Source: Tubulanus polymorphus (taxonomy: Eukaryota; Animalia; Nemertea). Taken from it: a stretch of DNA of 64,000 nucleotides. Shown here one piece after another: positions 3,505 to 64,000 of the stretch; the stretch's first letter is position 1, and each line of letters opens with the position of its first letter. The position numbers and the translations under genes are program-made. The stretch covers positions 14,508,001-14,572,000 of the forward strand of contig NC_134025.1 of NCBI RefSeq assembly GCF_964204645.1, in the 5' to 3' direction. The notes below the pieces were generated by a model. The model saw only the letters and a program-made list of their open reading frames with translations, made no database searches and was not told the origin of the DNA.

Positions 3505-3509
3505 GGTCG

Positions 3510-9073: not shown

Positions 9074-9109
9074 GGTCTTCTTTTATTAGTTAACCGATGA
9101 ATTATACTT

Positions 9110-9760: not shown

Positions 9761-9845
9761 CTTAGTGTTTTAAGTGTTTTAGCTGCGAATGAAAAACACT
9801 TTTAATAGAAACAAGGGGGTTGTCAATATTTGAAAAATACAGTAC

Positions 9846-10127: not shown

Positions 10128-10217
10128 AACATTAGTTAAAATTACGGTTTGACTATTAATCGATTTTAGATATTCGAGGTTTGACTATTTTTTCATAAAC
10201 GCTATCGGACTTTCGTT

Positions 10218-10535: not shown

Positions 10536-10588
10536 GATTAGTCTCTTTTAAAAATATTTCATATTCAATCTTTTTTTCCTCACAGAAA

Positions 10589-11090
10589 ATGTATTCATGC
10601 CAATACTGCCCGTTGACCTTTGCCAATGAACTTGGTTTGGAACAACACCAGCAACTGCACGTTGGTAAGAAGGGGTTTAAATGCTTGAGCTGTTGCAAAG
10701 CATTTGCGTGTGCGCGCGATTTAACGCACCACACCGTCATTTGTATGGCACCCCAACCGATTCAGCAACAGGCGTCTGTAGCTTTGGCTATTCCGGTAAG
10801 TAGATTAGAACCGTTCGTTTTAATTATTATGTGGTTGAACGTATTACCAAATATCTGTTTTTTATTTTCAGCAAATATGGGACTGCAATGCGGTCTTAAC
10901 TTTGCTAACCAGCAAACGCTGACGCGACACATGGGTTCCCATTTTGGGACTTCTGATTGTCAATGCGTCACACACATGTGGTAAGGTGTTTGCGCGCAAA
11001 GACCATTTGAAGCGACACGCTAAAACGTGTAAGGGATACGTTGTACAACACGACGTATCGTGGTCTGTACTACATCGGAGGCTAAACCGG
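10589..11090 (+). pseudogene. Spliced multi-C2H2 zinc-finger gene (intron 10796-10871), frameshifted in exon 2
   Basis: Fingers CQYC..HQQLH, CLSC..HTVIC, QCGLNF..HMGSH, TCGKVFARKDHLKRH. GTAAGT donors at 10796 and 11091, acceptor TTTTCAG at 10871. Confidence 0.75.
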
Positions 11091-11125
11091 TAAGTTTTGA
11101 AATTATGAGTTACAAAGAAAAACCG

Positions 11126-11127
<2 letters not shown>

Positions 11128-11175
<48 letters not shown>
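11128..11175. repeat. (TA)n microsatellite
   Basis: Direct reading. Confidence 0.95.
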
Positions 11176-11177
<2 letters not shown>

Positions 11178-11230
11178 TTTTTTAATATACATTCAATGTC
11201 ATTGTCTATTGAAGGGGTCCGAGTGTCCGA

Positions 11231-14200: not shown

Positions 14201-14474
14201 TCCTAGAGATAATGAATTCTCGACTGAATGTAAGGTTAAAGGGATCAATTTGAATTTTCGAAACAAGCAAATTGTAAACTTTGGTTCCATGGTGGATATA
14301 ATTGTCGAAGAAAAGTACGACCATCATTACATATTAAATCCCGACAAAATCAATAGAAAGATCAAGGACTGCTCTATTTACAATAGAGACGAACGTAAAA
14401 TATATCGCACCGTTTATACAAAACGAGCTTTTGACCCCGCAGATCGGTATAACACGCTTCCGTACGGATATTAA
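11231..14474 (+). pseudogene. Protein-primed family-B DNA polymerase with inserted Vsr-like nuclease domain; split by stops and frameshifts (about 12475, 12880, 13854)
   Basis: Exo motifs FDFET, HNFQSFDG, YCRSDV. Pol motifs GGRT, DICSLYP, KLCLNSMWGK, YTDTDS, GPKNY, KVKG. Vsr-like VDGY..YEF..WEHE. Confidence 0.95.
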
Positions 14475-14475
14475 T

Positions 14476-15058
14476 GTAACAGAGTGAAAAGACAAAAATA
14501 TAGTTACCTATTTATTTATTTATTCTATTTATTGCGTATTTATTGTTAATAAATGTTTTTTAATTGTTGACATTAATTTGTTTTACATTTATTTTTTGAA
14601 TTTTTGGTTTACTTCGTTTCACCCGTACTCGGGATTCCTTGGAAAAGCGCCATCTAGGATTTACTCCTCCCCCTCCTCTCACACACACGCATAGGATGTC
14701 GTACCCAATAAATAAATTTGGATTTGTTGTCAATAAATAAAATTGGATTTAACATCATCAATAAATTGATTTGGATTTGTTGTCAATTTATTGATTTGGA
14801 TTTTAACCGCCAATTCCGGTCGCCATCTTGGATTACGCCACTTCCGGTCGCCATCTTGGATTACGCCACTTCCGGTCGCCATCTTGGATTACGTCACTTC
14901 CGGTCGCCATCTTGGATTACGTCACTTCCGGTCGCCATCTTGGATTACGTCACTTCCGGTCGCCATCTTGGATTACGTCACTTCCGGTATGACGTCATCC
15001 CCCCTCCCCCTCCTCCCCTCACTCCACTGCGGTACCATAGTGACAACATGTAACTACT
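14476..15058 (-). repeat. Right TIR of Polinton-A with six tandem 28-bp units (14813-14980)
   Basis: Unit CTTCCGGTCGCCATCTTGGATTACGYCA x6. The remainder is the reverse complement of the left TIR. Confidence 0.95.
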
Positions 15059-46710: not shown

Positions 46711-47055
46711 AGTAATAGGGAATAAGTTGTTTCATACCAAAGGTCGAAGGGTCGAGCTCATAAAAAATAAAAAATAAATTCTCGCAAACTCGAATTTATT
46801 TTTTATTTTTTACTCACTCGCCCCTTCAACCTTTGATATGAAACAACTTATTCCCTATTACTCTTAAAATATTCATATGTATGAATAAAATAAAAATGAA
46901 TAACTTCTAAAATCAATTTTAATAAAACATTTGATATTAAAATGGAAGCAAATAAGTACTACTGTCCAACATGTAATATCAATGTAGATAAATCCTAAAA
47001 AGCAAGACACATTAAAACTAAAACACATTTAGAGAATAAATTGAAACTAGAATAT
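46711..47055 (+). repeat. Left TIR of Polinton-B (345 bp), including a terminal 152-bp imperfect palindrome and a dead copy of the start of ORF 63029-63787
   Basis: Reverse-complement match to the window end. ATGGAAGCAAATAAGTACTACTG at 46942. Confidence 0.95.
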
Positions 47056-47406
47056 TTACAGTTATATTTAGAACAGTTAACAAAGGCAAAGAAATTTATT
47101 GATCAATGGAACAATGATCCAAATAATGAACAATACGTTGAGTCTTTAATGAGTGGTTAAAGAATAATAGATTTTAAATAAAAAATATTAAAAAAACAAT
47201 AACTTCAACTAGCTAGTGAATTCTATTATATTTTTAATATTTTCTTTTCAAAAAAGAATACTTTATATCACAAATAAAAAATACTAAAAAAACAATAACT
47301 AATACTAAAATTCTTTACCTTTAACTAACTAGTATTAACCCAAAGAGATACTAGTATCATTTTATAATACTTATAATATTTTTCTTATTAAATTTCTCTA
47401 ATATAA

Positions 47407-48009
47407 ATGTCAAAGAAATCTAATAAGAATAGTATTGATATTGAAAAAACATTAGATGATTTAGGTATTAGTGATAATAAAGATACAGTTGTTTCTAATT
47501 CTATTCAAGTTAATAACAATATAGATTATGAATACTATTTATATTGTAAGCATCATCTAGAACTATTGATTGCCGGTGGAAAAACTAATGAGTTTTTAAA
47601 TAGAATCATTACTTTTCAAGAATTAGATGCTATGAAACCAGATAAAGTAATAAAATATTTTAAGATTTATGAAGAAGCTAGATTAGCTAGAATAAATGAT
47701 TCTATTTCAGATGGTATTGTCAAATGTTATTCTAAGTTATGTAACCAGTTAATACCAATTGATGATGAAAATAAATTATATAGTGATTTGAAAAATGACT
47801 ACTTAGTTATGACTGAATTACAAAAATGGGTTGGATATGCTTCATTCCAATTAGGATCGGTTATGACATTAATTTCTACTGGTGTCATAACATTTTCGAA
47901 CATCAAGCCTATGGAATATAAATCAGGTAAGAACGAAACAGATGTACTACAACCAAACGTTGAAACAGAAAATGAATCAGAACAAAAATTAACTAAAATA
48001 AATGAGTGA
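47407..48009 (+). CDS. Polinton-B hypothetical protein with a hydrophobic C-terminal segment
   Basis: 200-aa ORF with TAAATG start. VGYASFQLGSVMTLISTGVITF. Confidence 0.75.
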   Translation: MSKKSNKNSIDIEKTLDDLGISDNKDTVVSNSIQVNNNIDYEYYLYCKHHLELLIAGGKTNEFLNRIITFQELDAMKPDKVIKYFKIYEEARLARINDSISDGIVKCYSKLCNQLIPIDDENKLYSDLKNDYLVMTELQKWVGYASFQLGSVMTLISTGVITFSNIKPMEYKSGKNETDVLQPNVETENESEQKLTKINE

Positions 48010-48491
48010 TGGAGTTAAGAAAAAGGCTAGATCCGAGAAACAAATTAAATGGGCAAGAGAATTAGGTAAAAGATCTTCAGAATTAAAAAAAGGCTAAGAA
48101 AAATAAATTAACTGATATAGAGAAACAAATTATATGGGCAAGAGAATTAGGTAAAAGATCTTCAGAATTAAAAAAAGCTAAGAAAAATAAATTAACTGAT
48201 ATAAATGAATCACAGACTTTATCTGATATTGATTCAAATAATAATCCATCTAATAGATTCAGCACAGCTGAATCTCATAATTACTTATATATTACAATTG
48301 GGTTAATCACAATTATTATATTCTCCGGGGTAATATATAAATCAAAATTCAAATCTGATGATAACAATAATGATTCCAATGACAATCGGAAACTTAGTTA
48401 TCCGTGTACAGACAATAAACCTATTATACCAGAAAATAAGTCAAATCATAAAACAATTGAAACTAAATCTAAATTATTATTAATGGATTAA
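48002..48491 (+). pseudogene. Small single-TM protein frameshifted by an 85-bp tandem duplication
   Basis: TAAATG start. EKQI.WARELGKRSSELKK duplicated at 48036 and 48121. TM YLYITIGLITIIIFSGVIY. Confidence 0.7.
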
Positions 48492-48497
48492 AATAAG

Positions 48498-49601
48498 ATG
48501 AAAAAAGAACAATATTTAAGAGATTTATATTATAACCCAGAAAGTGAAGTATCATATTCTAACGTTACAGAATTATGGGGTAAAATTAAATCTGATAAGG
48601 AAAATGGTGGTATAAAATATAGCGAATTAAAATCATGGTTACAAAACCAACCCACATATCAAATCCACAAGAAAATGGATAAAACTTATTTAACAAGAAA
48701 AGTTATGGTTTCATATATCGATCAACAATGGCAAGCAGATTTAATTGACATGAAGAACTTAGAAGAATACAACAAAGGATATTTCTGGATATTAAATGTT
48801 ATAGACATATTCAGTAGATACGCATGGTCAATTCCAATCAAAAATAAAACTGGAATAGAAGTAACAAATGCTTTTAAATCTATATCTAAAGAAGCTATTC
48901 CAGATAAGATACAATTTGATGAAGGTAAGGAATTCTATAACAAACATTTCAAAAAACTATTATCTGATAACGATGTAGATTATTTTTCAACACATTCAGA
49001 TAAAAAAGCATCTATTATAGAAAGATTTAATAAAACATTGAAAACTAGAATGTGGAAATATTTTACTGCTAATGAAACATATAAATATATCGGTGAGTCT
49101 ATAAATATATTAGATGATTTAGTGAAAGGTTATAATAATTCTAAACATAGTTCTATAAATATGAAACCTATACAAGCTAGAAAAGAAGATAATTCGGAAA
49201 TAGTTTGGAATAATTTATATGGAGCGTTTGTTACACACGATTTCGGTGAACCTAAATTTAAAATAGGACAACACGTAACAATATCTAAATATAGAAAAAC
49301 ATTCTATAAAGGTTATACTCCAAATTTTACTGAAGAGATATTTAAAATTAAAAAGATAATATTAACTAAACCTTTTGTTTATAAACTAGAAGATCTAAAA
49401 GATGAAGAAATATTAGGTTATTTCTATGAACAAGAATTATCACTTGTACCAAATCCAGATGAAATAGAATACAAAATAGAAAAAGTATTGAAAACAAAAA
49501 CTCTTAAAGGAAAAAAGTATTCTTTGGTGAAATATAAAGGATACGATGATAAATTTAATGAATGGATTTTATCTAGTAAAATTAAAAGAATAAATGAATA
49601 A
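48498..49601 (+). CDS. rve integrase with chromodomain, intact
   Basis: WQADLID, IDIFSRYAW, QFDEGKEF, IERFNKTLK, LVKYKGY..NEW. Confidence 0.95.
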   Translation: MKKEQYLRDLYYNPESEVSYSNVTELWGKIKSDKENGGIKYSELKSWLQNQPTYQIHKKMDKTYLTRKVMVSYIDQQWQADLIDMKNLEEYNKGYFWILNVIDIFSRYAWSIPIKNKTGIEVTNAFKSISKEAIPDKIQFDEGKEFYNKHFKKLLSDNDVDYFSTHSDKKASIIERFNKTLKTRMWKYFTANETYKYIGESINILDDLVKGYNNSKHSSINMKPIQARKEDNSEIVWNNLYGAFVTHDFGEPKFKIGQHVTISKYRKTFYKGYTPNFTEEIFKIKKIILTKPFVYKLEDLKDEEILGYFYEQELSLVPNPDEIEYKIEKVLKTKTLKGKKYSLVKYKGYDDKFNEWILSSKIKRINE

Positions 49602-50205
49602 AGATTTATTTATATTTGAACCTCATAATATGTTAGTTACTGGAGTAACCAATTGTGGTAAAACACATTTCATATTAGATTTGTTAGAAACTATTTATAA
49701 GAATCATTTTGATAATATAATATTATTCTGTCCTACTTATGAAATGAATAAAACATATAATAGAGATATAGTTAAGATGAAAAAGTTTATTATATTAGAT
49801 CCTAAAACAGTAAAAGAAAATTTAGATAATTGTATAAAAATAGTAATTGATGCTTATAAAGGATCAAATACATTATTCATTGTAGATGATTGCGCAAATT
49901 TACATGATTCAAAAGTGAGAGAAAGTGAGTTATGTTATTTAGCTTTCTCTGGAAGACATTTTGGGATAACAACCTGGGTTTTAAATCAAAAATATAATTC
50001 AATTGTTAAAGACTTTAGGGAGAATATAAGATTTCTAGTTTTATTCTACAACAAAGATAAAAAATCTATGCAACAATCATTGGAAGAAAATCAAATTATA
50101 CCTACTGAATTATATGATGAATATATGAATAAATTAAAGAATAATAAAGGTTCAAAATTATTACTGAGACTACATTTTCCATATGAATATACATTTATAA
50201 AATAA
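49594..50205 (+). CDS. Packaging ATPase
   Basis: GVTNCGKT, LFIVDDC, SGRHFGITTWVLNQ. Confidence 0.93.
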   Translation: MNKDLFIFEPHNMLVTGVTNCGKTHFILDLLETIYKNHFDNIILFCPTYEMNKTYNRDIVKMKKFIILDPKTVKENLDNCIKIVIDAYKGSNTLFIVDDCANLHDSKVRESELCYLAFSGRHFGITTWVLNQKYNSIVKDFRENIRFLVLFYNKDKKSMQQSLEENQIIPTELYDEYMNKLKNNKGSKLLLRLHFPYEYTFIK

Positions 50206-50214
50206 CTATTTATA

Positions 50215-50555
50215 TATCTATGTATTAGATACCCTATTAGATACCCTAATACCTGATACCCTATTAGATACCTTAAATACTTAAAACCCCCTTTTTTAAA
50301 ATAAATATTATTTATACAATTTTCAACCAATTTATTTTTATTTTTTCAACTAATATATGAATAAGTTTGAAAATAATAAAGGTTATTTATTATTACTGAG
50401 GTTTCAACATAAATTTAAAAAAGAAATATGATTTAAGGTATTTTCAAATAATATGTATTAGATATGTATTAGATATGTATTAGATACCTTAAATACCTTA
50501 AATACTTAAAAACCCCTTTTTTATTTACTATTATTTTATACAATTTTCAACCAAT
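50215..50555 (+). repeat. Direct-repeat region between convergent gene blocks
   Basis: TATTAGATA micro-repeats and ATACTTAAAA.CCCCTTTT...TATACAATTTTCAACCAAT twice. Confidence 0.75.
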
Positions 50556-50592
50556 ATTATTATTATTATATATGTTAAATATAATTAATATT

Positions 50593-51380
50593 TTAATCAC
50601 TTTCACTATCAGACCCTAACAATTTATTCAAATTCTCTACCGTATCATCGTCAATAGTTGTTTTATTTTTATACTTATTCTTCACCCTTTTTACCGCATC
50701 ATCAATAGTTGTTTCATTGTTATGCTTATTCATCCAATCAAATTTATCATTATTTTCTACTTTATGTTTCATAGAATCTTTATTAGTGTTTGCTCCTAAT
50801 ATTTCATTTACAGTGTTTGATCCTAATATTTCATTAGCATCAGTTAAATCTAATTCATCTTATTAGGTGTTGCTAATAAAAAATCTACATATAATTCTTT
50901 ACCATTTACTTTTGTATTTGAAACAAACTTTGTAACATATCTAAATGGGTGTTCTATAAATTCTTTTAAACCAACACGTTCTATAACATTAGTAATATGT
51001 GAATTTGTATTCATATGTTTATTCCAATTTGATGGAGCGTTTGAATATTCATCTTTACAATAATCACAATAATTTCTATTTTGACTAACATTTAATATTA
51101 TTGCATTATTATATGTAGAAGTTATTACATTATTAGATGTAGTAGGTATTACTGTAGTAGGTATTACTGTAGTAGGTATTACATTATTATCAATTACATT
51201 ACTTAAATTATCAACAACACCACTTTTATTATTATCGATTTCTATTAGTTTAGTTTTATAAATTTTGAAAATAGGATCAAATATCAAAGCTATATTACAA
51301 GGTATTACATAATATAAACCATCATTATTTTCATGTGTATCGATGTATGGAATATGTTTATATACTTTACCACCTTCCAT
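50593..51380 (-). pseudogene. Hypothetical protein with a single C2H2-type finger; acidic tail continues after a frameshift at about 50855
   Basis: YCDYC..WNKHMNTNSH and VIPTT repeats. Open frame DELDLTDANEILG... runs to about 50593. Confidence 0.6.
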
Positions 51381-51412
51381 TTATATAATAAATATTTATT
51401 AAAGTTAAAATT

Positions 51413-52660
51413 TTAATACATAACACTATCTAATTGTGAATTCACAATATTTAATTGCGCGTCAGATATAATATAAATGTGCATTTTAAAATTTTTGATT
51501 CCTTTATTCTTTGTCATGAATAATTGTATTCCATCTTTAGTGTTCTGTAGTTTTTTTCCAGAACCATGTGATGAATTATCCTCTGTTGTTCTAAAATCTA
51601 ACCATAATGCATATTTATTACCGGTATAATAATCAATTTGATTAATATTACAATTTTCAGATGATTTTACTTTTTCATTCATAAAATGTTTTCTAATTTC
51701 TGGCCATTGATCAATCATTCTCATTCCTTGACAAAATATTTTATTTGCTATTCCTTCGATAGTTATTTCTACTTTTGTTATTTCAGGATTATAATAATTA
51801 TCAACATTTATTGCACCATTAGTATATGTTGCAATGGTAAAAAATATTCATATACCTTTAATCGATCTTCTTGAGAAGTTAATATTCTCATTAATTATTT
51901 CATCATTTGCATTAATAGTTACAGTTTTAAATTTATCAATATAATCATATAATAATGAAAATCCTTGATTGTATTGAGTTTGAATTATACTTGAAATATT
52001 TTCATCAGTTACTGTATCATATTCTAAACATATATTCGATAATTTATAACCCATATCTTTATTAACGCTAGATATTACAATTTCATTAACAGGAGCAAAT
52101 GTTATTTCGAATATAACGTCTTCTTGAATTGCGTATTTATATAAAGGCGCATTATTATTTATCAATTCAAAGTCTAATGGAATTTTATATTTGCTTCCAT
52201 ATATACTTTTTATCAATTTATCTACAGCATTAGTTAATATTGCGCTATTGGCTTCTGATCTTAATTTATTTTGGTTTTCTGATTGGATGCCTTGAAATAT
52301 CATATTATTTCTATTTTCTTTAGTTAACCATAAATCTTTATAATGCATAAATAAATTATAATCATCTAATGAGAAAACTGTTTCTGGACCAATCTTTATA
52401 GTTAATTTTTTAATCAAATATCTTCCAACATTATCAACAACATAATTATTATTATTACCGATTACTTTTATATTAGCTGATAAATAAATACTATTTGGAA
52501 CGTAAAAAGTATTTTGTGTTAATCGAGGAATTCTAACGTATAAAGTTTCATCGGGATTAATATTAGAAGGGTTATGAGTAATTATATGATGTGATCTTTC
52601 TGCTTTAATAGCATTAGATATTCTAGAAATCTTAGAAGGACTTATATAACTCCCACTCAT
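51413..52660 (-). pseudogene. Major capsid protein, frameshifted (51413-51724 plus 51848-52660)
   Basis: ITHNPSNINPDETLYVRIP, YKLSNICLEYD, YALWLDFRT..HGSG, YIISDAQLNI. Confidence 0.85.
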
Positions 52661-52710
52661 TTATTTAACAAAAAAATTATTTATTTATTTTTTATCATGG
52701 TTATTTTTTA

Positions 52711-54180
52711 TTATTTTTTCTTGATATTTTTGGATATCATATTTACTAATCCAAAAATGATAGCACTTACAACTGTAATTAAAAATAAAATAATATGTTC
52801 AGCAGCAAAGTTAAGAATATTCCCAGCAGATTTCAATATAAAACCAACAATTGATGCAATAATTCCTGGTAATGCTGCAGCAGATTTCTTTGATAGTTCC
52901 CATAAATATTTTGCTAATTTCTTTAAACCATCTTTAACTTTATTTTGTATAGAATTATTATCATTCGGGGGTTTATCCGGTTTATTGGGAGTAGGAGTAG
53001 ATTTTAAAGCATTTGATATAGCTAAACCAATTGTTGTGAATAACATAGTTACAGCTGTTAGAATTGAAAGAATTGTTATTCCTTCTAATTTAAATAACAA
53101 TTTTATTCTGTCTTTTAATGATATTTTAGAATCTGGTTTTATCAACAAATCTTTAAAAATAACTTTTAATCTATCAATATTATAATCATATGATTTTAAT
53201 AATAATTTAATTTCTTCTTTTTGTAATTCTATGTTATATTCTAAATCATCTTTTTCTTTTTCTAAACGTAATTCTTTTTTTGCCTATATTCTATTTCATC
53301 AATTACTTGATGATCTAAATCAGACTTTAATTGTTCTATTTCTTTATTTTTATCAGTTAATTCTTTTCTAAAGTTCTAATTTTAAAATCTCTTATACTTT
53401 TATCATGCGCAATTTTATCAGATGCAAGTCTTATACTAAAAATTTCTCTAATTGCTTTATCAGAAAATATATCTAAATATTCTAATTCTTGATCTGTTGC
53501 ATCAAGTAATCCATTTGGTAAAAGTTTTTCAATTGGAACTTTATTTGATTTAAGTTTACTAGTTTTGGAAGTTATATTCTGTTCAGAAGTTGTTTCTGTT
53601 TCTAAATTATTATCGATTGTTTCAAATAATTCATTAATTCTTTGTTTAAATACTCTTTCATTTTTAATAATTTCTTCTTGTGTTACATCTTCTATTTCAT
53701 TTATATTTCTTATTCTTTTAATTCTAGATAGGTCTAACCTAAACAAAGTTGATTCTGCTAATATTTTGTTTTTTTTTAATAAGAGATATCAATATAATAA
53801 TCATCTTTCAAATGATAATAATATTCACCATCTAATGATTTTAATTCTCTTACTAAATATCTGGCGCCTCTATCATTTATATTATATCCAGATTCTTTAA
53901 ATACATGTTGAAAATCATACATAAATTCAATATTTTCTAAATTTTGTCTTGATAAACCTGGGTCTAAATTTTCAGGATTTATTCTCGATCTAGTTCTTCT
54001 ATCAAATTCATCTGTTGATGGGGCTTTAGAACCACTATCTGCTAAATTAGAATTATATGTTGTATCATTATCATTATCAATATTAGTATCAGCAGTCATA
54101 TAATCATCATTGTTAGTATTGACATCATCATTATTTCCCATGCCTTCCATTTCATAATCTTCTCCACCTTCTACATCCAT
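52711..54180 (-). pseudogene. Long acidic/coiled-coil protein with C-terminal hydrophobic helices, split by frameshifts
   Basis: Fragments 53776-54180, 53357-53746 and 52711-53148. EGITILSILTA and ALPGIIASIVGFIL..HIILFLI. Confidence 0.7.
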
Positions 54181-54196
54181 TTACATAATAAAAAAA

Positions 54197-55520
54197 TTAA
54201 AATTTAAAATATAATATTCCTCCGATTACAATTCCTATACAAGTTAAAGCTAATTTAGTATTTTCATGGGATTTATTATCATCATTAGTTTTAATTATAT
54301 CATGTTGAATATTATCAGTTTTAATATCACCGTGTGGGTGCCGTACGGCACCATTTTCTGATGTATTATAATCCGGTTTAGAATCATTATGCAATTTAAT
54401 ATTATTAGTTTTAGTTTCAGTTGATTGAATATGTTTTTAATTTTTTTCACCTTCCATTAATTTTGGAGCAGTGATAATCTTTTTATTTATATCATTCAAT
54501 CCAAATGAATTATTTATTGTTGCAGTTTTAATTAGATTATTATAACCAATTATATTTCCCATCTTTAATACTAAATCATTAGAAATAATTAATAGATTAG
54601 GGCCTATACAATAATTTAATCTAATATGTAATTTATCTAAATAATTTTGATATCTTACAATGTTTTCTGGAATCGATCTATTTTTATCATTATGAATAGA
54701 ATCTTCAAATAATACTTTAAATTGTTTCTGCGCATCGAATGAAGTGTTATCATTTCCAACTATTGGTGATCTTGTTTCAACTTGCGCACCTAGAATACAT
54801 ATCAAATAAGTTCTAATAGATTGATTTATTCTTTGTATACCAGCTTTAGTAAAACCTTCACTATTTTCTAAAATGAAATTAACCCAACCATTATTATTAT
54901 CAATTTTATAATTAGTATAAGCTCCAATTCTATGCATATAATCAATTCTTTTTATTTCATACTGTTCACCAATACCTTGCAATTTACCATGCGCTCTAAA
55001 ATCAGAATTAATATTCATATTAAATTCATTACATATTTTATAAAACTTAGATAGATTAATATTATTATCCGATTCTTTAAAATATTTAGACCCGGGTAAA
55101 GGACATTCTAATTCATTTAATATTATTCTGATTTGAAAATATGTGTGAAATCTAAATATTGTGTGAATTAATTTTAAATCAGAATACTTCAAATTTTTAT
55201 CTAAGTTATTTAAATGATCATTCCAACTTATTCCACATCCTGTTGTTGCACAATAAACAGCAAAATCTAATTGGTTCTGCCAATATTTCATATTAGATTT
55301 TACTTTATATATGATATTCATCTCGAGTAAAAGTAACTTCATATGTATTAAATATATTTTCCATTTTAGAAATAAACAACTGTGATTCAGTAACATAAAT
55401 TTCTAAATTAGTTAATGAATTTAAAACTATATTTTTATATGTAATATTTTTCTTAAAATCTATTGCCGGAATATTATATTTAATTGATTTATTATATTGG
55501 AAAGCTTTTGGAAACCCCAT
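54197..55520 (-). pseudogene. Conserved Polinton-B protein with C-terminal TM anchor, frameshifted
   Basis: Fragments 55305-55520, 54437-55396 (WQNQLDFAVYCATTGCGIS; RTYLICILGAQ) and 54197-54394 (LALTCIGIVIGGILYF). Confidence 0.72.
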
Positions 55521-55536
55521 TTATATAACTAAAAAA

Positions 55537-55971
55537 TTAATAATTAACTAATTCTTTTAATAATTTATCTTGTTCTTCAACTGTTATATGACCATTTAAA
55601 CTTATTATATAATCTAGTGTATTCTTTAATTTATTAATTTCTTTTATATTAGTTTTAATTTTTTCTTTATTACTTTTTATATTCAATTTTGAACTTATAC
55701 CGGTTAAAACACTTGAACTTAATCCTAACACACCAATTGATATAGCTAAAGGTGTTAATGGACTGAATATTGCTAGAAATGTTATTACAGAACTAATTGT
55801 AACCGAACCACTTATAATCAAATAATATATAATTTTAGATTTTAAATATTTTTTCTTTTTAACTTTTAAGTCATTTTCAAATTCTAATATTTGTTTTTCT
55901 AAATATATTTTTAATTTATTTTTATCTATATCATGAGGAATAATATCAATATTATCAACTTTATCATCCAT
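55537..55971 (-). CDS. Two-TM hairpin/coiled-coil membrane protein
   Basis: IIYYLIISGSVTISSVITFLAIF / LAISIGVLGLSSSVLTGI. TAAATG start. Confidence 0.75.
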   Translation of the reverse strand: MDDKVDNIDIIPHDIDKNKLKIYLEKQILEFENDLKVKKKKYLKSKIIYYLIISGSVTISSVITFLAIFSPLTPLAISIGVLGLSSSVLTGISSKLNIKSNKEKIKTNIKEINKLKNTLDYIISLNGHITVEEQDKLLKELVNY

Positions 55972-55992
55972 TTATTTAGAAAAAAAAAATTA

Positions 55993-56415
55993 CTAATTAG
56001 TAAACTTATAAGCAACAAATATAACAATAACTGTTCCACCTAAAATCCATATTATTTCATATTTCTTCTGTTCATTACTTGGGGTATAATAATCTGATAA
56101 TTTAGGTTTGTATAGATGTAATTTTTCTTTATTGGTTACCGCGTTATATAAACTCATTGCATCATCAACTGATTGAAAATCTCTATGTGAAATCTTCTGA
56201 TCATATAATTCTTTATTGATGTAATCCATGTAGTTTTGCCTCTTTTCTCTATATTCTTCTGCAGCTTTATTGTATTTCTCTAATGCTAAGTTATGTCTTT
56301 TTTGTTCTGTTAATGAACCATTTTTATCAATATGTTTAAATAAATATCCACCACCAGTAAATGCTAAAGCGTTAACAATTGCTGATCCTATAATAGTTAT
56401 AATTGCAGAAGCCAT
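55993..56415 (-). CDS. Conserved small protein with hydrophobic N- and C-termini
   Basis: GSAIVNALAFTGGGYLF, EQKRHNLALEK, C-terminal TM. Confidence 0.78.
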   Translation of the reverse strand: MASAIITIIGSAIVNALAFTGGGYLFKHIDKNGSLTEQKRHNLALEKYNKAAEEYREKRQNYMDYINKELYDQKISHRDFQSVDDAMSLYNAVTNKEKLHLYKPKLSDYYTPSNEQKKYEIIWILGGTVIVIFVAYKFTN

Positions 56416-56439
56416 TTATTTAGCAAAAAAATTATGCAT

Positions 56440-56661
56440 TTATATGGGAGGAATATATTTTTGTTTTTCCAAATAATCAATAGTTAAATTAGATAAAGTA
56501 ACTGCTAACGTTAATTTTAAAATATCATTTATATCAAATCTATCAACATTAACACTTCCCATTTTAAATACTTTTTTTAATACCATTGTATAACCAACAG
56601 TTCCAACTGATAGTAATGCTCCATTATATAATCCAGTTATTATCCACTTATTATCACTCAT
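56440..56661 (-). CDS. Small hydrophobic protein
   Basis: TAAATG start, two hydrophobic segments, ends YLEKQKYIP. Confidence 0.72.
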   Translation of the reverse strand: MSDNKWIITGLYNGALLSVGTVGYTMVLKKVFKMGSVNVDRFDINDILKLTLAVTLSNLTIDYLEKQKYIPPI

Positions 56662-57000
56662 TTATTTATCAAAAAAATTACTATCATCAAAATATTTAGT
56701 TATCTTATTTATGATTAATTCAACATTTATTTCATTACTACTTTGATGATTATCATATATTTTGGATAATATGTTTTTGATATCTTCAATAATTCCATCT
56801 TCATTTAATTCATAATATTCTAAAGGTGATTTAATTAAATCAATTACTTTTTCTATATTATAATTTTCTTTATCAATCATTGACGCATTGTTAAATGATT
56901 TACTTTTTATATCAGTAATTACATTTAGTTTAATTCTCATTTCTTTACCATGTTTAAAATCAAACCCAAAACATATACTCGGTCCAACAGTTATATTCAT
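56662..57000 (-). CDS. Hypothetical protein
   Basis: TAAATG start; tightly packed in the gene block. Confidence 0.65.
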   Translation of the reverse strand: MNITVGPSICFGFDFKHGKEMRIKLNVITDIKSKSFNNASMIDKENYNIEKVIDLIKSPLEYYELNEDGIIEDIKNILSKIYDNHQSSNEINVELIINKITKYFDDSNFFDK

Positions 57001-57017
57001 TTATATAGTGAAAAAAA

Positions 57018-57776
57018 TTACTCTCTACATCTTATAAATAATTCATAAATTACAGGGAAATTATTTAAATCAATTAAGTATCCATTATGATTTCTTATTT
57101 CTAATCTAAAATTATTAAAACGAGGAATGCATGGTTTGAAATCACATTCTGTTAAATTATAATTTATTTGCGTTCCAAATTCTTTAACATTCTTCAATGG
57201 TAAAATGTTTAGTAAACCAGAATTACAAGTTATATCTTTAGTTGCTTCGAATGTTTTTGTAGGATCGATTAAATTGCAATAAATATAAAAGTGTGTAAAA
57301 GGTATTAAGTTTGGTGTAGCTTCAATATTTGTAAAAGATTTATCTGGAGGAATTCCTAACAGTTTAGCTATAGGTTTTTTTACCATAAATGCATGTTTTT
57401 CACTATTAGACAACCTTATCTTTATTTTGTCAGTACTCTCACTTTTTAAAAATCTAATATTAAACCCGGAATTATTACCTGACTTGTGCCAGGCTTTTCT
57501 ATTAATTTCTTGTGCCAATGTATCTAAATTATATAACCCCGGTTTTAAATATATATAGGCCCATTCATTTTTATTTTTATTAAAAATTAAAAAGGCTCTA
57601 TGTTCAATAGTTTTATTCGATATATTGTAAAAAGAATTACATAAACTTATATTAACTAATTTTAAATCAACACAATTTTTATATTCTCTATCTAATTGTA
57701 CTAGTAAATTATGAGATTTATAATTTGTAAGTCTTCTAGAATCAACAAATATTCTGTATTCTTTTAATTCTACCAT
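57018..57776 (-). CDS. Putative minor capsid protein
   Basis: IFVDSR, NSFYNIS, PGLYNL, FYIYCNLID, IRNHNGYLIDLNNFPV..L.I beta-rich pattern. Confidence 0.75.
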   Translation of the reverse strand: MVELKEYRIFVDSRRLTNYKSHNLLVQLDREYKNCVDLKLVNISLCNSFYNISNKTIEHRAFLIFNKNKNEWAYIYLKPGLYNLDTLAQEINRKAWHKSGNNSGFNIRFLKSESTDKIKIRLSNSEKHAFMVKKPIAKLLGIPPDKSFTNIEATPNLIPFTHFYIYCNLIDPTKTFEATKDITCNSGLLNILPLKNVKEFGTQINYNLTECDFKPCIPRFNNFRLEIRNHNGYLIDLNNFPVIYELFIRCRE

Positions 57777-57793
57777 TTATTTTACATATTTTC

Positions 57794-58147
57794 TTATTCG
57801 AAATCTATTTCATGGTGCCCCTTTTCATTCTTACCTTTGTATACGAAATAGAAATCACCAGAACATAATTCTTCCAAATCTTCACTTGATAATCTATGAA
57901 ATCTATCAGGTAAATATGTTCTGAATTTATATGTATTTCCTTCTAATCCTTCATATTCTAAGTGTATAACTAATTTATCTCCATAGTTATTAGTAACTGT
58001 AACAATATTTCTAATTAGATATTTCTTATGGATTGTTAATTCTGTTAACTTTTTGAATTTATAATCTACAGATTTTACATTTGTTATATCTTTAATTCTA
58101 TCTAGATATAATTTGTTGTTCTCACTGTGTGTTTGTTTACTCTCCAT
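57794..58147 (-). CDS. Small conserved protein (possible OB-fold ssDNA-binding)
   Basis: KKL.EL...Y.I....T.NYG..L...L...YLP.RF pattern. The fold is an inference. Confidence 0.65.
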   Translation of the reverse strand: MESKQTHSENNKLYLDRIKDITNVKSVDYKFKKLTELTIHKKYLIRNIVTVTNNYGDKLVIHLEYEGLEGNTYKFRTYLPDRFHRLSSEDLEELCSGDFYFVYKGKNEKGHHEIDFE

Positions 58148-58176
58148 TTATAATACATATTTTTATTAAAATTTGA

Positions 58177-58957
58177 TTAACACGTTAGAATTCTTTTCAT
58201 TATCTCGTTCTCTTTTGTTTCTTCTCTTTTAAATTTTAAGTATTCATCTAATTTACAACCATAAGCAACTGTATGAATTCCATCATCCAGAATATATCTT
58301 TTATCATCAAATGGGTTTAGACTTATCTTTTCAATTTCTTCAACATATTGTTCATTATTTGGTTCATTGTTCCAAAATTCAATGAATTTCTTTGCTTTAT
58401 CTAATTGATCCAAATATAACTGAAAATCTAGTTTATTAGATTTGATTTGATTTTCTTTCTTTTCAAGAGGTCTTAGATTCTTCCAATTCCAAATTAATTT
58501 CTGATTATGTTCATCATTCATGTTAAATTTAGATATCGGTAACACATGATCAATATGAAAGTATTCACCATAGTTTTTTTCATTCATTTTATCGTTGAAT
58601 TGATATACAATCCATGATTTGAGAAATTCATCTGAACAACCCAATAAATTAGATAGTGTAACTGAATGCGCTTCTTTACTGAATAATTGTGATAGTCTAT
58701 TACCTAGACATTGTTTCATTTTAAAATTAAAATCTGTTTGATATCTTTCTTTATGATATTTGTTTTGATACGCTTTAACACGTTCTGGATTATTTTCCTT
58801 CCATTGCTTAATTTTATCGTTGCGTGCTTCAATATTATCTCTATAATATTGTTGATTATTCTGATGATTATAACAGCTTTTGCAATTATGGCGTAAACCA
58901 TCTTTACCAATCTTACGTTTATGATAATCTGTAAATGGCTTACTTATTTTACATTTG
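58177..58957 (-). pseudogene. 5'-truncated tandem duplicate of the HNH endonuclease gene
   Basis: Near-identical to 59051-59828 with an 874-bp period. Confidence 0.9.
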
Positions 58958-59050
58958 TTATATCTTTAATTCTATCTAGAAATAATTTGTTGTTCTCACT
59001 GTGTGTTTGTTTACTCTCCATTTATAATACATATTTTTATTAAAATTTGA

Positions 59051-59899
59051 TTAACACGTTAGAATTCTTTTCATTATCTCGTTCTCTTTTGTTTCTTCTC
59101 TTTTAAATTTTAAGTATTCATCTAAATTACAACCATAAGCAACTGTATGAATTCCATCATCCAGAATATATCTTTTATCATCAAATGGGTTTAGACTTAT
59201 CTTTTCAATTTCTTCAACATATCGTTCATTATTTGGTTCATTGTTCCAAAATTCAATGAATTTCTTTGCTTTATCTAATTGATCCAAATATAACTGAAAA
59301 TCTAGTTTATTAGATTTGATTTGATTTTCTTTCTTTTCAAGAGGTCTTAGATTCTTCCAATTCCAAATTAATTTCTGATTGTGTTCATCATTCATGTTAA
59401 ATTTAGATATCGGTAACACATGATCAATATGAAAGTATTCACCATAGTTTTTTTCATTCATTTTATCGTTGAATTGATATACAATCCATGATTTGAGAAA
59501 TTCATCTGAACAACCCAATAAATTAGATAGTGTAACTGAATGCGCTTCTTTACTGAATAATTGTGATAATCTATTACCTAGACATTGTTTCATTTTAAAA
59601 TTAAAATCTGTTTGACATCTTTCTTTATGATATTTATTTTGATACGCTTTAACGCGTTCTGGATTATTTTCCTTCCATTGCTTAATTTTATCGATTCGTG
59701 CTTCAATATTATCTCTATAATATTGTTGATTATTCTGATGATAACAGCTTTTGCAATTATGGCGTAAACCATCTTTACCAATCTTACGTTTATAATAATC
59801 TGTAAATGGCTTACTTATTTTACATTTGCAACATGTTTTATGATATATATTTATAACACTATTTGTAATATTGATAGTTTGTGATTGTTCCGGCTCCAT
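59051..59899 (-). CDS. NCLDV-type HNH endonuclease fused to a copy of the pPolB C-terminus
   Basis: CCKC..KDGL...CKSC, LLGCS..FL, NYGEYFHIDHVLP, NW.NLRPL...EN..KSNK. Last about 53 aa match the pPolB end. Confidence 0.88.
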   Translation of the reverse strand: MEPEQSQTINITNSVINIYHKTCCKCKISKPFTDYYKRKIGKDGLRHNCKSCYHQNNQQYYRDNIEARIDKIKQWKENNPERVKAYQNKYHKERCQTDFNFKMKQCLGNRLSQLFSKEAHSVTLSNLLGCSDEFLKSWIVYQFNDKMNEKNYGEYFHIDHVLPISKFNMNDEHNQKLIWNWKNLRPLEKKENQIKSNKLDFQLYLDQLDKAKKFIEFWNNEPNNERYVEEIEKISLNPFDDKRYILDDGIHTVAYGCNLDEYLKFKREETKENEIMKRILTC

Positions 59900-59928
59900 T
59901 TATAATATATATTTTCATTAAAACTGAA

Positions 59929-62900
59929 TTAACACGTTATAATCCTGTTCATTATTTCCTTTTCTTTCTCTTCTTCCCTTTTAAATTTTAAGTATTCATC
60001 TAAATTGCAACCATACGCGACTGTGTGTATACCATCATCTAATATATATCGTTTATCATCAAATGGATTCAAACTTATCTTCTCTATTTCTTCAATAAAC
60101 ATTTCGTGGTACTCAGATCTTAAACATCTCATCTTATGTTTTCTAACTTCTTCATTGAATATACAATTGATGTAATCTTTGAAATGAATATTCTTTTCTA
60201 CTACACTTTTGGTTATTCCTTTTAACTTTTTAGCTTCATGTTCTTTAGTTTTATATGAATACATTTTAGATCTAATACCGATGAATTCAGTCATTTCTTC
60301 ACCGCCTAATTCATCTTTGAATTTACCGGGAACTTTTTTATTATCATTGCTAAACAATTCATGATGTTTAGGATAATTACTAAAATCAAAATGATGTTTT
60401 AATGTTTTTAAATCATCAGTTATGTTATCAGTTTTTATCTTTAATATGTAACTGTCAGTATCAAAATATAATATTTCTATAAGTTTTTCTCCAAAAAGTG
60501 GTTGTAATATATTATAATAGAATTCATACATTAGTAATTTTGATAATTCTAAAACTGATGCACCAACATAGATTGGTTTATTAAATTTCATTGATGTTCT
60601 TCTCATCTTAACTGCGGCTAAATTTTCATCAAATATTCTGTTACCAATGAACTTAGGATATGATTGTAAATGTCTTATCCTTTTACCATTACTAACTAAC
60701 TCAATATCATTTCTATTTCTAATATTTTCACAAGTCTTACCATAGAATGCATTATTCATTAACTTGAAGAAATCTTTTTCGAAATCAGTTTTAGCTTTAG
60801 TTCCCTGTTTGGTGTTAAAATCTATATATTTTTCTAACCATTTAGATTGACTGAATGAAATATATCTATGTAATTTTTTTAGAATCATTCCTTGATTCAA
60901 ATAAAACTTTAACATTCTGTAATGTACTACATAATTATATTTATCTTCTTGAGATACCATTAACTTTTCTGTATGAATATGATTTTCGGGTTTAATTCTT
61001 TTTTGGTAATTTGATAATTCTTCATGAGTTACAGTTTTATGTTCGGGGCAGTATGCTAGATTTCTAGATTTAAATTTAATATGTTCAGGATATTCTAAAT
61101 CTACAACAAAGAAGTAACCAATATCTGAATCATCTGCAATATCTAGAATTCTTTTCTTCCAATCAAATTTATCATAATTTTCATTCTGTAAAACTTCTCT
61201 TATTTCAAATACTCCATAAGGTTGTGGTTCCATCATTGCCCAACCATACAAATTATTTGCATCTATATATAATAACTTATATCCAGGGTTATCATTTACA
61301 TTGAAATATCTATCACCTAATACACCTGAAACTCCTCCTCTTATAGATTTTTCAAATAATAATAATTGATCTATATTTGTTAACAAATCCATTTTTATAT
61401 CTGTAAATTTTAATCCACAATCCCATGTTAAACCTGGTGATGAATAACAATGACAAGGATCAATGTTAAAATATTTTAGGTTTACATCTCTAAACCTTTC
61501 GAATATATCGGTTAATAATAATACATCTGATTTTAGATATAAATCTACTAATTGCCCATGATTTTCTATTTTTAAATGATTCCAAATATTCAATGTTCTA
61601 TTATAGACTTCATCTTTAACATATTCATTTTTTAATTCATAATAGAATTGTTCTTTTAATAATTCAGTTATGTTAAAATCATTATGATTTTTATAAAATG
61701 AATATGGAATTGCGCCTTTATATCTCATTAATTGAAAATCATCATTATTTGGGTGGTGTTGCTTTAATATTTTTAATTCATCATCAACTAATGATTTTGA
61801 TAAGTTATCTAATGAACTATTTAAAAATCTATATGAATCTATAAATCTTAGACACCCAAATTGGAATGATATATAATTCTTAGCTTGCAAATTGCAATTC
61901 TCATGTGCAGCGCCTCTAAACTTTCCATTCAAATGATCATGGTCTCTTACTTTTTTATCTTTATAATTAAATATCTTTTCACAATAATAACATTTACCTG
62001 CAAACGCAAATGCTTCTTTATCTTCTTCTGTCATTATAATTTCTATATTTGTATTCAATAATTTACTAAATCTTATTTCATATTCAATTAATAAGTCACA
62101 AAAATGATTGATAACATTTTCATTTCTGTAATGATAATATTCACTTTCAATTAGTTCTGGATAATCAGATTTTAAATATAACCCGAAAGCTGCAGCCGAT
62201 TGATGAATCTTTTTAATTGTATTTGTTTTTGGTGGTTCATCTGAAAAATCATTTTCTTTAGAATTTAATTTCTTTCTTTTATAATATATTTCTTTTCTAT
62301 CTTGATCAGTTAGTTCTTTATTTAATGATTCAAAATCTCCATATATTACAAATGGTGCTTTATTTTTGTAATCATATTTTTTGAATTCTAATATTTTATC
62401 TTTTTCATTTGGTAAAACTAATTTACAATAATCATGATTTTCACATAATTGTTTATGATTTAATAATGCACTTTCAGTTCTGAATTTATGTAAACATTTT
62501 CTACATAGATATATTTTATTATCAAAATCATTTTCTGATTTAAAAAATAAATCAATTCTTTTAATCCACATATAATGATTCTCATAATATAATATATCTA
62601 TAACACCATTTGAATCATAATCTTTTGATAGGTATAAAGGTTCTAATGTATAATGTTTTATATTGTTACCTTTTGTATTTGGTAATTTGATTAAATCAAA
62701 TACATTTATCTTTATATTATTATCTCTTTCTATTTTTGGGATGTTTTTAATTCTAACAGGATACTTATCTATCTTATAATTATTTGCAAATGGTTAATAA
62801 TGAGTTAATCTAAAACTATGTGTAATATCTTCTGTTGGGTGTAAACAACTTATAATTGTCCATAGAAAACATTTATCATCAAAATTTTGTACATTTATTA

Positions 62901-63787
62901 CAGCATTAGTTTTAAATGGTAGTTTAATATAACTCGATGCTTCAATATCTGGTTCTTTATAATGATACATTATTTTCATCAATTGGTTTTGATTTAGTTA
63001 ACTTATTAAATTTTGTGTTATAAACATGTTAAGTCATAAATATTATTTCATCAAATATTAAACCAGATCCTTCTAAATATTTCTCTTCTATTTTAGTTTT
63101 TACTTCATTATAACATTTATCTAATTTATCATCTATATGTTGTTTTGATATAATATGTTGTGAATGAGAATTTAGATTATATATTGGTTTATCTTCAGAT
63201 TTTATGAATTTAACTTTAGAAGATATACTAATTTTAGGGTATTCAACATCAGTTATTATTTTTATTATTTCTTTCATATTTTCTAAATGTTTTTTATTTT
63301 CTTCTAATGTTTTTCCTTTATGAAATTTAAACTCGATAGCTGCTGGGCCAATATCACTTTTAAATGCTTCGGTTATCTCTATATCTTTTTTATTATCTAA
63401 TGAATTAATGTAATTTCTTACATCTTCCATGTATGGTCTTTTATTGTTTAATTTATTTTTTATGCTTTTAATTGTCTTCTGTTTCTTATCATTATCTTTA
63501 TCAAAATAATCTTCACCTAAAATATCATTATTCTTATTTCTAATATGACTTTTAGATTTTAAATTTTCTTTATAATATCTTTTATCACTGAATGATTGAT
63601 TACATGTATCACATTTATATTTTTCTTTTTCATTCTTTAATTCATCTAATTTAGTTTCTAATATATCATCTTTATATTCTAGTTTCAATTTATTCTCTAA
63701 ATGTGTTTTAATTTTATTGTGTCTTGCTTTTTGGGATTTATATAGATTGATATTACATGTTGGACAGTAGTACTTATTTGCTTCCAT
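59929..63787 (-). pseudogene. Protein-primed family-B DNA polymerase with Zn fingers and endonuclease-VII-like insert; N-terminal part broken by frameshifts and stops
   Basis: SSYIKLP..INVQNFDDKCFLW, YGDFES, RDHDHLNGKFRGAAH..CNL, YLKSDV, IRGGVS, DANNLYGWAM, KLMNNAFYGKT, YFDTDS, KLKGI. Confidence 0.95.
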
Positions 63788-64000
63788 TTTAATATCAAAT
63801 TTTTTATTAAAATTGATTTTAGAAGTTATTCATTTTTATTTTATTCATATATATGAATATTTTAAGAGTAATAGGGAATAAGTTGTTTCATATCAAAGGT
63901 TGAAGGGGCGAGTGAGTAAAAAATAAAAAATAAATTCGAGTTTGCGAGAATTTATTTTTTATTTTTTATGAGCTCGACCCTTCGACCTTTGGTATGAAAC
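63674..64000 (-). repeat. Right TIR of Polinton-B (truncated by the window edge)
   Basis: Reverse complement of 46729-47055. Confidence 0.95.

Follow-up and report, generated by a model that had tools for sequence, protein, structure and literature searches.

It is an open question if animal Polintons can replicate by themselves or depend on a helper, and according to a 2026 review preprint no virions of them have been seen (10.64898/2026.06.19.733378). The stretch of 64,000 nt analyzed here (the window, Table 1) contains a protease-less Polinton of ~17 kb and 24% GC, integrated in a Tubulanus polymorphus chromosome, whose gene starts raise the question of which RNA polymerase reads them. TAAATG was found at 14 of 16 gene starts, compared to 41 of 489 other first-ATG-after-stop sites in the element (Fisher p = 8e-14). 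A preliminary description of this DNA had listed these 14 starts, and TAA followed by ATG was indeed present at each of them; the two exceptions it had named, TAAGATG at the integrase (48498) and TAAAATG at the protein-primed polymerase pPolB (63787), hold as well. A fifteenth TAAATG at 59021 duplicates the start at 58147 within a 1.15-kb tandem duplication (copies 58072-59217 and 58946-60095, 94% identical), and with this duplicate included TAA precedes 15 of 17 starts.

Table 1 Features of the window, from left to right (L001, intact relative used as reference).
Feature	Position	Strand	Remarks
Control classical Polinton, outside the finding	397..14803		adenain-like protease, TBP, 37% GC; gene starts without TAAATG
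Imperfect palindrome	46711-46862		at left terminal inverted repeat
Left terminal inverted repeat	46729..47073		346 nt, 96% to 63656-64000
Conserved 200-aa Polinton gene, TAAATG start	47407..48009	+	64% to L001 g206; relatives in 25/80 loci
Small basic protein gene, frameshifted, TAAATG start	48002..48490	+	two frames vs L001 g130
rve integrase with chromodomain, intact, start TAAGATG (exception)	48498..49601	+	rve E=4e-9, Chromo E=9e-5
A32-type packaging ATPase, intact, TAAATG start	49594..50205	+	Pox_A32 E=1.5e-11
176-aa gene, TAAATG start	50850..51380	-	no Pfam match
Major capsid protein (MCP) gene, one internal stop, T-run and TAAATG	51413..52660	-	73% to intact L001 MCP
Large gene, hydrophobic C-terminus, frameshifted, T-run and TAAATG	52711..54180	-	three frames vs L001 g485, residues 210-482 aligned
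Conserved ~440-aa Polinton gene, frameshift and stop, T-run and TAAATG	54197..55520	-	68% to L001 g442; relatives in 26/80 loci
144-aa membrane protein, T-run and TAAATG	55537..55971	-	77% to L001 g144
140-aa membrane protein, T-run and TAAATG	55993..56415	-	81% to L001 g139
73-aa protein, T-run within upstream gene, TAAATG, stop-start coupled	56440..56661	-	92% to L001 g75
112-aa gene, T-run and TAAATG	56662..57000	-	
252-aa gene, candidate minor capsid, A-rich upstream and TAAATG	57018..57776	-	44% to L001 254-aa protein; no Pfam match
117-aa gene, A-rich upstream and TAAATG	57794..58147	-	nearest named family phi29 SSB at 0.86
Tandem duplication, brings duplicate TAAATG at 59021	58072..60095		1.15 kb, 94% identical
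282-aa gene, A-rich upstream and TAAATG	59051..59899	-	no Pfam match
Protein-primed DNA polymerase B, split over frames	59929..63787	-	DNA_pol_B_2 E=4e-13
Right terminal inverted repeat, extends past window end	63656..64000		96% to left arm

From the local upstream base composition TAA was expected with a probability of 0.087 (binomial p about 1e-13), and only one of the 14 starts (56661) is coupled to a preceding stop; the remaining gaps are -8 or 16-50 nt, a gap of 256 nt computed for 54180 being an artefact, as the gene upstream is cut short by a premature stop. Evidently, the motif is more frequent than AT content and stop-start coupling predict. For comparison with another Polinton, as the preliminary description had proposed, the classical Polinton of the same host was analyzed and found to lack the motif, TAA preceding 1 of its 19 ATG-first ORFs, where it is a stop within the split integrase. 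Counting against the promoter reading proposed below, TAAAT is not depleted inside the coding strands of the element (82 vs 78.6 expected). Four of the 14 starts (48002, 52660, 54180 and 55520) belong to genes that are broken; 48002, 52660 and 55520 are supported as true starts by homology to L001 and a matching gene order, and 54180 only by gene order and a similar N-terminus. The motif extends beyond the structural genes.

As described before, the element is more AT-rich than its flanks (GC 20-26% vs 28-49%) and shows no introns, the proteins of relatives aligning collinearly along coding blocks that cover 94% of 47407-63787. The control Polinton is likewise without intron signs, and this trait does not discriminate. 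The copy studied is defective, five genes being broken, capsid and polymerase among them. The arms of the terminal inverted repeats are 96% alike, so the insertion is not ancient; the pPolB start lies inside the right repeat and a copy of it in the left one, whose outer boundary is not fixed, the right end of the element falling outside the window. The major capsid protein is predicted to be a double jelly-roll, the model of its L001 counterpart (pLDDT 90.5) matching solved double jelly-roll capsids with E about 1e-16, those of iridovirus, PBCV-1 and mavirus being among the matches. By its size and the gene set, the 252-aa gene likely encodes the minor capsid protein (single jelly-roll), and the 117-aa protein is possibly an ssDNA-binding protein, which we treat as a lead. 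pPolB carries an endonuclease-VII-type insert (Endonuclease_7 E = 4e-5), the 144-aa membrane protein resembles SLATT weakly (E = 0.004, below the Pfam cut-off) and the 282-aa gene presumably holds an HNH-like motif. A tblastn search with the adenain cysteine protease of the same window and a protease motif search, run on the element and its 80 relatives, returned nothing except three implausible matches, the control Polinton being positive. No RNA polymerase was matched in the element by Pfam, and the longest genes other than pPolB reach only about 415-485 aa.

The spread of the motif was determined in a comparison set of these 80 related loci. In the nearest group (group T; 23 loci, 20-39% GC), which was delimited after the counts had been seen and whose monophyly is not established, TAAATG is present at 48 of 52 core-gene starts, and in an unbiased branch of 29 rows at 48 of 61; the other groups, AT-rich ones included, have it at 2 of 115. 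Leaving out L001, the counts were 34 of 38 versus 0 of 24 in 12 AT-rich outside loci (p = 2e-13), and a second start-calling method yielded 46 of 58 versus 4 of 343 outside. The looser TAAA is enriched near starts in outside groups too (6/8, 11/35 and 3/6). A purine at -3 occurs at 3 of 52 starts in the nearest group versus 55 of 59 in a GC-rich outside group, and the T at -3 of the motif starts is contrary to what host genes have at their starts. Furthermore, 13 of 14 starts in head-to-head position have TAAATG, evidence against both stop-codon and poly(A)-signal explanations. The integrase itself starts with TAAATG in L001, L006, L007 and L011 and without it in L002 and L015; by this sequence comparison the deviating TAAGATG is particular to the copy studied. 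The ATPases of the relatives that keep the motif are 41-80% identical to that of the element, which indicates long selection. Taken together, these data support a real and lineage-specific motif that AT content, stop-start coupling, poly(A) signals and host start context fail to explain.

The preliminary description had also pointed to an upstream T tract. At 7 of the 14 starts, all in the capsid block 52660-57000, such a T-run stops 5-7 nt short of TAAAT, and the other seven lack it; upstream of 57776, 58147 and 59899 the sequence is A-rich. On the minus strand TAATTTTTT occurs seven times, each 6-11 nt ahead of a TAAATG start, and on the plus strand four times, never ahead of TAAATG; its chance figure of 0.07 comes from whole-window shuffles and a data-derived pattern and overstates the significance. 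According to two vaccinia reports, late promoters consist of a T-containing core 5-7 bp before TAAAT(G/A) (PMC5294985), and TAAA at -1 to +3 is read by the vaccinia polymerase itself (PMC12917281). Judged against this published layout rather than an actual helper genome, the element shares with the vaccinia intermediate and late promoters the TAAAT(G) overlapping the start codon, the T-rich core 5-7 nt upstream and the AT-rich alternative core, which agrees with the earlier assignment of TAAATG as a poxvirus late promoter/initiator. In contrast to vaccinia, the motif sits in an element without a polymerase and is known here from sequence alone. Late starts of ASFV carry TATA, not TAAAT (PMC7163114), and among the sister lineages other start dialects were found, namely a TATA type like that of ASFV late genes and a host type with a purine at -3.

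We consider it probable (roughly 0.6) that TAAATG serves as a transcription initiator and that the RNA polymerase reading it belongs to a cytoplasmic poxvirus-type helper and not to the host. Of the earlier proposal, the pox-like helper gains from the motif, its lineage restriction, the vaccinia-like layout and the missing polymerase; the suggested antiviral role is unsupported, capsid and polymerase genes being broken in this copy. The integrase would insert the genome into the chromosome, where it would be silent. Once the helper infects, its late machinery would open the AT-rich core about 10-20 nt upstream, the RNA would begin within the AAA of TAAATG and a 5' poly(A) leader would arise by slippage immediately ahead of the AUG, so that the T at -3 would not matter for translation. 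Replication of the genome would then fall to pPolB and its packaging, inside the factory of the helper, to the capsid module. Speculatively, the genes with T-runs may be late-type and the three with A-rich upstream regions intermediate-type.

A helper virus was not identified by a motif scan of viral stretches: 34 were returned, none with systematic TAAATG starts (best 4/9), and relatives of the element were absent from IMG/VR. To our knowledge, no poxvirus of ribbon worms has been described. A VLTF3-like gene, so far a lead, was seen in two relatives; it is absent from the element studied, occurs in other Polinton-like viruses (PLVs) as well, and its label was not borne out by Pfam or fold search.

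Host RNA polymerase II could alternatively use a compact AT-rich core promoter with very short or absent leaders, independent of any helper. This would fit the failed helper search, the TATAAA whose final A is that of the start codon in 6 of 14 cases in the window and 11 of 52 in relatives, and the transcription of coral polintoviruses in control and heat-stressed colonies alike (PMC11131425). We nevertheless regard it as unlikely, because a TATA box for Pol II belongs about 25-30 nt ahead of the transcription start and is misplaced at the start codon, the T at -3 reverses the purine of sister lineages sharing the gene set, and the Polinton of the same host that has its own TBP lacks the motif; moreover, AATAAA is not purged from the coding strands (about 4 per kb, 46 vs 48.4 expected). 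The outside groups leave AATAAA unpurged as well. Less probable again is a translational role of TAA, as an in-frame stop guarding the start or as a re-initiation cue on read-through RNAs, which we consider very improbable: TAA is invariably in frame with ATG, the genes are tightly packed (94% coding) and 6 of 46 starts of relatives show upstream-stop coupling, but the triplet before the ATG in relatives is always TAA and never TAG or TGA (0 of 52 starts), yet the same genes terminate in TAG or TGA in 11 of 46 cases. The 13 of 14 head-to-head starts with TAAATG have no same-strand gene upstream, and the fixed spacing of the T-run would be left unexplained.

Two further alternatives keep a viral polymerase and change its source, and both fall between those above in likelihood. 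The promoters might be a relic of a lineage that adapted to a poxvirus helper elsewhere and arrived by horizontal transfer, the helper being absent here; the five broken genes, the look-alikes of the 117-aa protein, of which the few with a record come from arthropods more often than from any other group, and the gene exchange of poxviruses with chordates and arthropods (10.1101/2024.03.23.586382) speak for this. Retention of the motif across such divergent ATPases does not, nor do the closely similar repeat arms, integration here having required some integrase expression, and we find a relic improbable. Slightly more doubtful still is a non-pox donor with a pox-related polymerase, be it an egovirus- or iridovirus-like virus, a pGKL-like linear plasmid or a larger sister element. 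The linear elements of yeast do pair a TAAAN initiator with a pox-related polymerase that they encode themselves (PMC6211774), TAAAT is present in ranavirus polymerase-gene promoters, and egoviruses and polintons have exchanged genes; however, the strict start-overlapping TAAATG with a T-run at 5-7 nt best fits the vaccinia late layout, and 18 accessory ORFs of relatives contained no polymerase subunit.

The gene content is that of Mavericks/Polintons in the broad sense. With groups 1 and 2 (adintoviruses; PMC8502044, 10.64898/2026.06.19.733378) the element shares pPolB, rve integrase, A32 ATPase, double jelly-roll capsid, terminal inverted repeats, a length of about 17 kb and the animal genome; unlike adintoviruses/group 1 it has no adenain protease. 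Its capsid and the one encoded by the classical Polinton of the window failed to align (hhalign 0.4%), and in a viral fold search adintovirus entries ranked only 27th and 50th. The element may belong to the animal elements with PLV-type capsids (PMC11296320, 10.64898/2026.06.19.733378). Two traits of a helper-dependent satellite were found in it: its promoters carry the motif of a large DNA virus, by the published vaccinia layout, and an RNA polymerase is missing. Virophages in the taxonomic sense (Virophaviricetes) have a virophage-type capsid and a maturation protease. Membership in this class was rejected, the element having no protease and the mavirus capsid ranking 43rd, below iridovirus and PBCV-1 capsids.

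The mavirus provirophage of Cafeteria with its helper CroV (10.1101/068312) is likewise integrated, with inverted repeats, pPolB, rve integrase and no polymerase of its own, and its genes carry the helper's late promoter and are silent until helper infection. It differs in its protist host and the CroV motif (TCTA core); moreover, its helper dependence and defence are experimentally established, whereas the dependence of the present element, which has no protease, is deduced from its sequence. Gezel-14T (PgVV; 10.1101/2022.07.28.501842) is a Polinton-like virus that carries its helper's promoter and relies on the helper for transcription, as is proposed for the present element; it has an algal host, an early AAAATTGA motif at five genes versus a late initiator at nearly all here, and tyrosine recombinase and TVpol in place of rve and pPolB. 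Poxvirus-associated Polinton-like viruses are already published: AHEV_PLV1/2, CBEV_PLV1 and Ca_PLV1, found in entomopoxvirus occlusion bodies, are, like this element, animal Polinton-like elements proposed as poxvirus parasites (PMC11296320). Compared by description, they are tied to the helper by co-packaging and the present element by its promoter, in a non-insect host; all four encode a protease, and AHEV_PLV1 and Ca_PLV1 have no known integrase. The words 'promoter', 'motif' and 'TAAAT' are absent from the main text of that report, and we found no report of pox-type promoters in Polintons in the literature.

A lineage-specific pox-type promoter makes helper dependence directly testable and offers a cheap genomic marker parting likely helper-dependent from autonomous Polintons. 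With a chance that we would put slightly below even, this widespread integrated lineage of animal Polintons represents provirophages of poxvirus-type viruses, its promoters being a fingerprint that predicts unseen pox-like viruses of marine invertebrates, ribbon worms for example. If so, the mavirus-type provirophage lifestyle would reach animal chromosomes, pox-like viruses would be expected in invertebrate groups with none known, and the start context of any Polinton could reveal its polymerase and helper.

The TAAATG starts are a real feature of the AT-rich, protease-less Polinton of about 17 kb that extends from around 46729 to beyond the window end. All 14 of those listed in the preliminary description were found in place, and TAA precedes 15 of the 17 starts of the element (14 of 16 if the duplicate at 59021 is not counted), compared with 41 of the 489 remaining first ATGs (Fisher p=8e-14); under the local base composition the observed count has a chance of p=1e-13. 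The classical Polinton of the same window (397-14803), which served as control, carries TAA before only one of 19 ATG-first ORFs, and this single case is a stop inside its split integrase. The upstream T tract that had been ascribed to many starts was recovered for seven of the 14, as a run of 6-10 T ending at -9 to -11, 5-7 nt before TAAAT, and at 57776, 58147 and 59899 an A-run ending at -13 takes its place. Inside the coding strands of the element TAAAT is not depleted (82 vs 78.6 expected). T5NT is depleted there (ratio 0.28; 0.34 in the control Polinton), but A-runs are as well, so that this depletion is non-specific.

The higher AT content that had been described for the element also holds, with a GC content of 20-26% inside vs 28-49% in the flanks. 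Pfam domains were identified for an rve integrase, an A32 ATPase and a protein-primed PolB; neither an adenain protease nor an RNA polymerase gene is present in the element. Its capsid gene is 73% identical to the intact capsid gene of L001, the closest relative among the metagenome loci, and the model of the L001 capsid (pLDDT 90.5) resembles double jelly-roll capsids in a fold search; the capsid profile gave zero sequence matches in the PDB. The copy is defective, with broken genes for the capsid, pPolB and the homologues of the L001 proteins g442, g485 and g130, and contains an internal duplication of 1.15 kb. Between 21 and 62% of the element's sequence words were found in four sequencing runs of one study, none of them recorded as RNA and one of them possibly from the source sample.

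Gene content places the element among the Polintons. Lacking adenain, it does not qualify as an adintovirus as defined in PMC8502044. No alignment was obtained between its capsid and that of the classical Polinton, and the element may belong to those animal elements, mentioned in PMC11296320 and in 2026 preprints, whose capsids are of PLV type. An adenain-like protease and a TBP homologue are encoded by the classical Polinton, in which both pPolB and the integrase are disrupted. Searches of main texts in the open literature turned up no publication dealing with TAAATG promoters of Polintons, and the word 'promoter' is absent from the main texts of PMC11296320, PMC8502044, PMC8363768, PMC11131425 and two 2026 Polinton preprints.

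Relatives were fetched from 23 of the 64 parts of a metagenome collection with an ATPase profile, yielding 80 loci (the best 80 of 180 confirmed), and three further loci were added with a capsid profile. A start entered the count only if its gene was homologous to an L001 core protein and the N-terminal offset agreed to within 25 residues; rows of the integrase were excluded because that query lacked its N-terminus. In group T, the TAAATG-type relatives, which were named after the counts were known as a 29-row branch of a quick tree (support 81) minus four rows, TAAATG stands at 48 of 52 core-gene starts from 23 loci among the best 80 of 180; for the entire 29-row branch the count is 48/61. 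The outside groups of the same selection (best 80 of 180) gave 0/9, 0/22, 0/21, 2/59 and 0/4. With L001 removed, 34/38 starts in group T still compare with 0/24 in AT-rich outside loci (p=2e-13, among the best 80 of 180), and a second start-calling method resulted in 46/58 vs 4/343 among the relatives listed. The group boundary is sharp for strict TAAATG only, because certain outside groups also show an excess of the looser TAAA close to starts. In a careful tree of 56 rows, from which 26 near-redundant rows were excluded, group T falls into three groups and a single origin was not recovered.

Several further observations were made among these loci. The closest sister rows among the loci listed (L008, L009, L010 and L014) have no TAAATG, and TATA lies within 12 nt of the start in 8 of 9 cases vs a background of 12%, possibly an asfar-type dialect given its resemblance to the ASFV late initiator TATA. 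The GC-rich outside loci within L038-L080 show a weak enrichment of TATA immediately ahead of starts (30/261 vs 3%) alongside the host-type purine at -3. L022, a member of the TAAATG group, carries a pPolB of the control Polinton's type (38%) instead of the element's type, which amounts to a polymerase swap. Capsid relatives in three prokaryotic genome bins (L081-L083) and in a Bartonella-labelled record (protein P0192) probably reflect binning errors or contamination with eukaryotic viral DNA.

AT content alone as the cause of TAAATG is rejected by the chance estimates and by the counts in the relatives. Coupling of each start to the stop of the preceding gene likewise fails, since 56661 is the sole coupled start in the element and only 6 of 46 starts are coupled in the relatives. 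If the motif acted as a stop codon, TAG or TGA might serve as well, yet these occupy that place at 0/52 starts although they terminate 11/46 of the same genes. A poly(A) signal would explain little, as AATAAA covers just 16/52 starts and TAAATG is found at 13 of 14 head-to-head starts that have no upstream gene on the same strand. A host (Kozak) context is contradicted by the purine at -3, which occurs in 3/52 group-T starts vs 55/59 in the GC-rich outside group. A role of the T-run in terminating the preceding gene is disfavoured too, considering that the run ends at a constant -9 to -11 relative to the ATG that follows and that at 56661 it sits within the upstream gene. As a sign of an early poxvirus promoter, the AAAAnTGAAAA match with one mismatch at 63827-63837, which lies upstream of the pPolB start, is uninformative because 69 such matches occur in the window. 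A supposed enrichment of membrane proteins in the group-T lineage was abandoned, the same genes being present in outside relatives.

A VLTF3-like zinc-ribbon protein was detected in two group-T loci among 117 scanned and is absent from the element. In the Atlas it falls among Pox_VLTF3 clusters (26 of 30 matches), with a recognition of 2212, below the reliable mark of 2300. This identity was confirmed neither by Pfam nor by a fold search on a low-confidence model (pLDDT 53), and the zinc-ribbon ORF of a further locus, L011, was not matched by the VLTF3-like profile. No pox polymerase subunit was found among 18 accessory ORFs of the relatives, in which a Rap94 match at E=0.019 was taken as chance. 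VLTF3 is present in other PLVs according to 10.64898/2026.06.19.733378.

Features of the element, its neighbourhood and its relatives (window positions unless a locus is named)
Feature	Position	Strand	Remark
Terminal inverted repeats	46729-47073 and 63656-64000		right one runs past window edge
Imperfect palindrome, 154 nt	46711-46862		left repeat
99-nt piece	47044-47141		matches duplicated pPolB 3' region; adjoins the left-repeat palindrome
Degenerate duplication of ATPase 3' end	50120-50567
TBP homologue of classical Polinton	7299-7868		Pfam E=1e-34
Pao/BEL retrotransposon and LINE	16439-20913 and 41482-43691		between the two Polintons
Host ODAD1/CCDC63 gene	32821-34497	(+)	one 558-aa open frame; best named match a Lineus longissimus (ribbon worm) protein, 61%; points to an animal host
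VLTF3-like zinc-ribbon protein	L019:1935-2867	(-)	C-terminal domain repeated three times
VLTF3-like zinc-ribbon protein	L015:3587-3817	(-)	TAAATG-type relative
Deoxynucleoside kinase	L001:10340-10981	(-)	E=2e-31; T-run plus TAAATG start; L001 is the closest relative listed

In vaccinia, the late promoter pairs a T-containing core with TAAAT(G/A), which lies 5-7 bp further downstream and overlaps the start site (PMC5294985). Vaccinia polymerase is reported to recognise TAAA at -1..+3 directly, with TAAA being common outside promoters too (PMC12917281), slippage at a TAAA-type initiator adds 5' poly(A) (PMC6211774), and late genes of ASFV use TATA instead (PMC7163114). Polinton-like viruses have been found in entomopoxvirus occlusion bodies (PMC11296320). 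Beside the motif statistics and the gene content of the element, which are direct observations, we regard it as rather probable (roughly 0.6) that the TAAATG starts are served by a poxvirus-type helper.

The search for a helper did not find one: scans of IMG/VR proteins for relatives found none, and of 34 stretches retrieved by a motif scan none has systematic TAAATG starts. Ribbon worms are not known to carry poxviruses. Two reports count against a helper: polintovirus expression is seen in control colonies of corals (PMC11131425), and poxvirus gene flow is linked to chordates and arthropods (egovirus preprint, 10.1101/2024.03.23.586382). The missing depletion of TAAAT, the non-specific loss of T5NT and the retention of AATAAA, which is not purged from the coding strands in any group, also count against it. 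The antiviral role put forward as a possibility in the preliminary description found no support.

The element, which has TAAATG starts and no polymerase, would need a polymerase from outside. This need would be analogous to that of mavirus, which uses the late promoter of CroV and is silent until infection (10.1101/068312); Gezel-14T likewise borrows a polymerase, but by an early motif (10.1101/2022.07.28.501842). With a poxvirus-type helper, transcription would initiate at the TAAATG motif and the transcripts would carry 5' poly(A) leaders. The element, although not a virophage in the taxonomic sense, is predicted to work in a provirophage-like way, in which it would stay silent while in the chromosome and would replicate in the factory of the helper.
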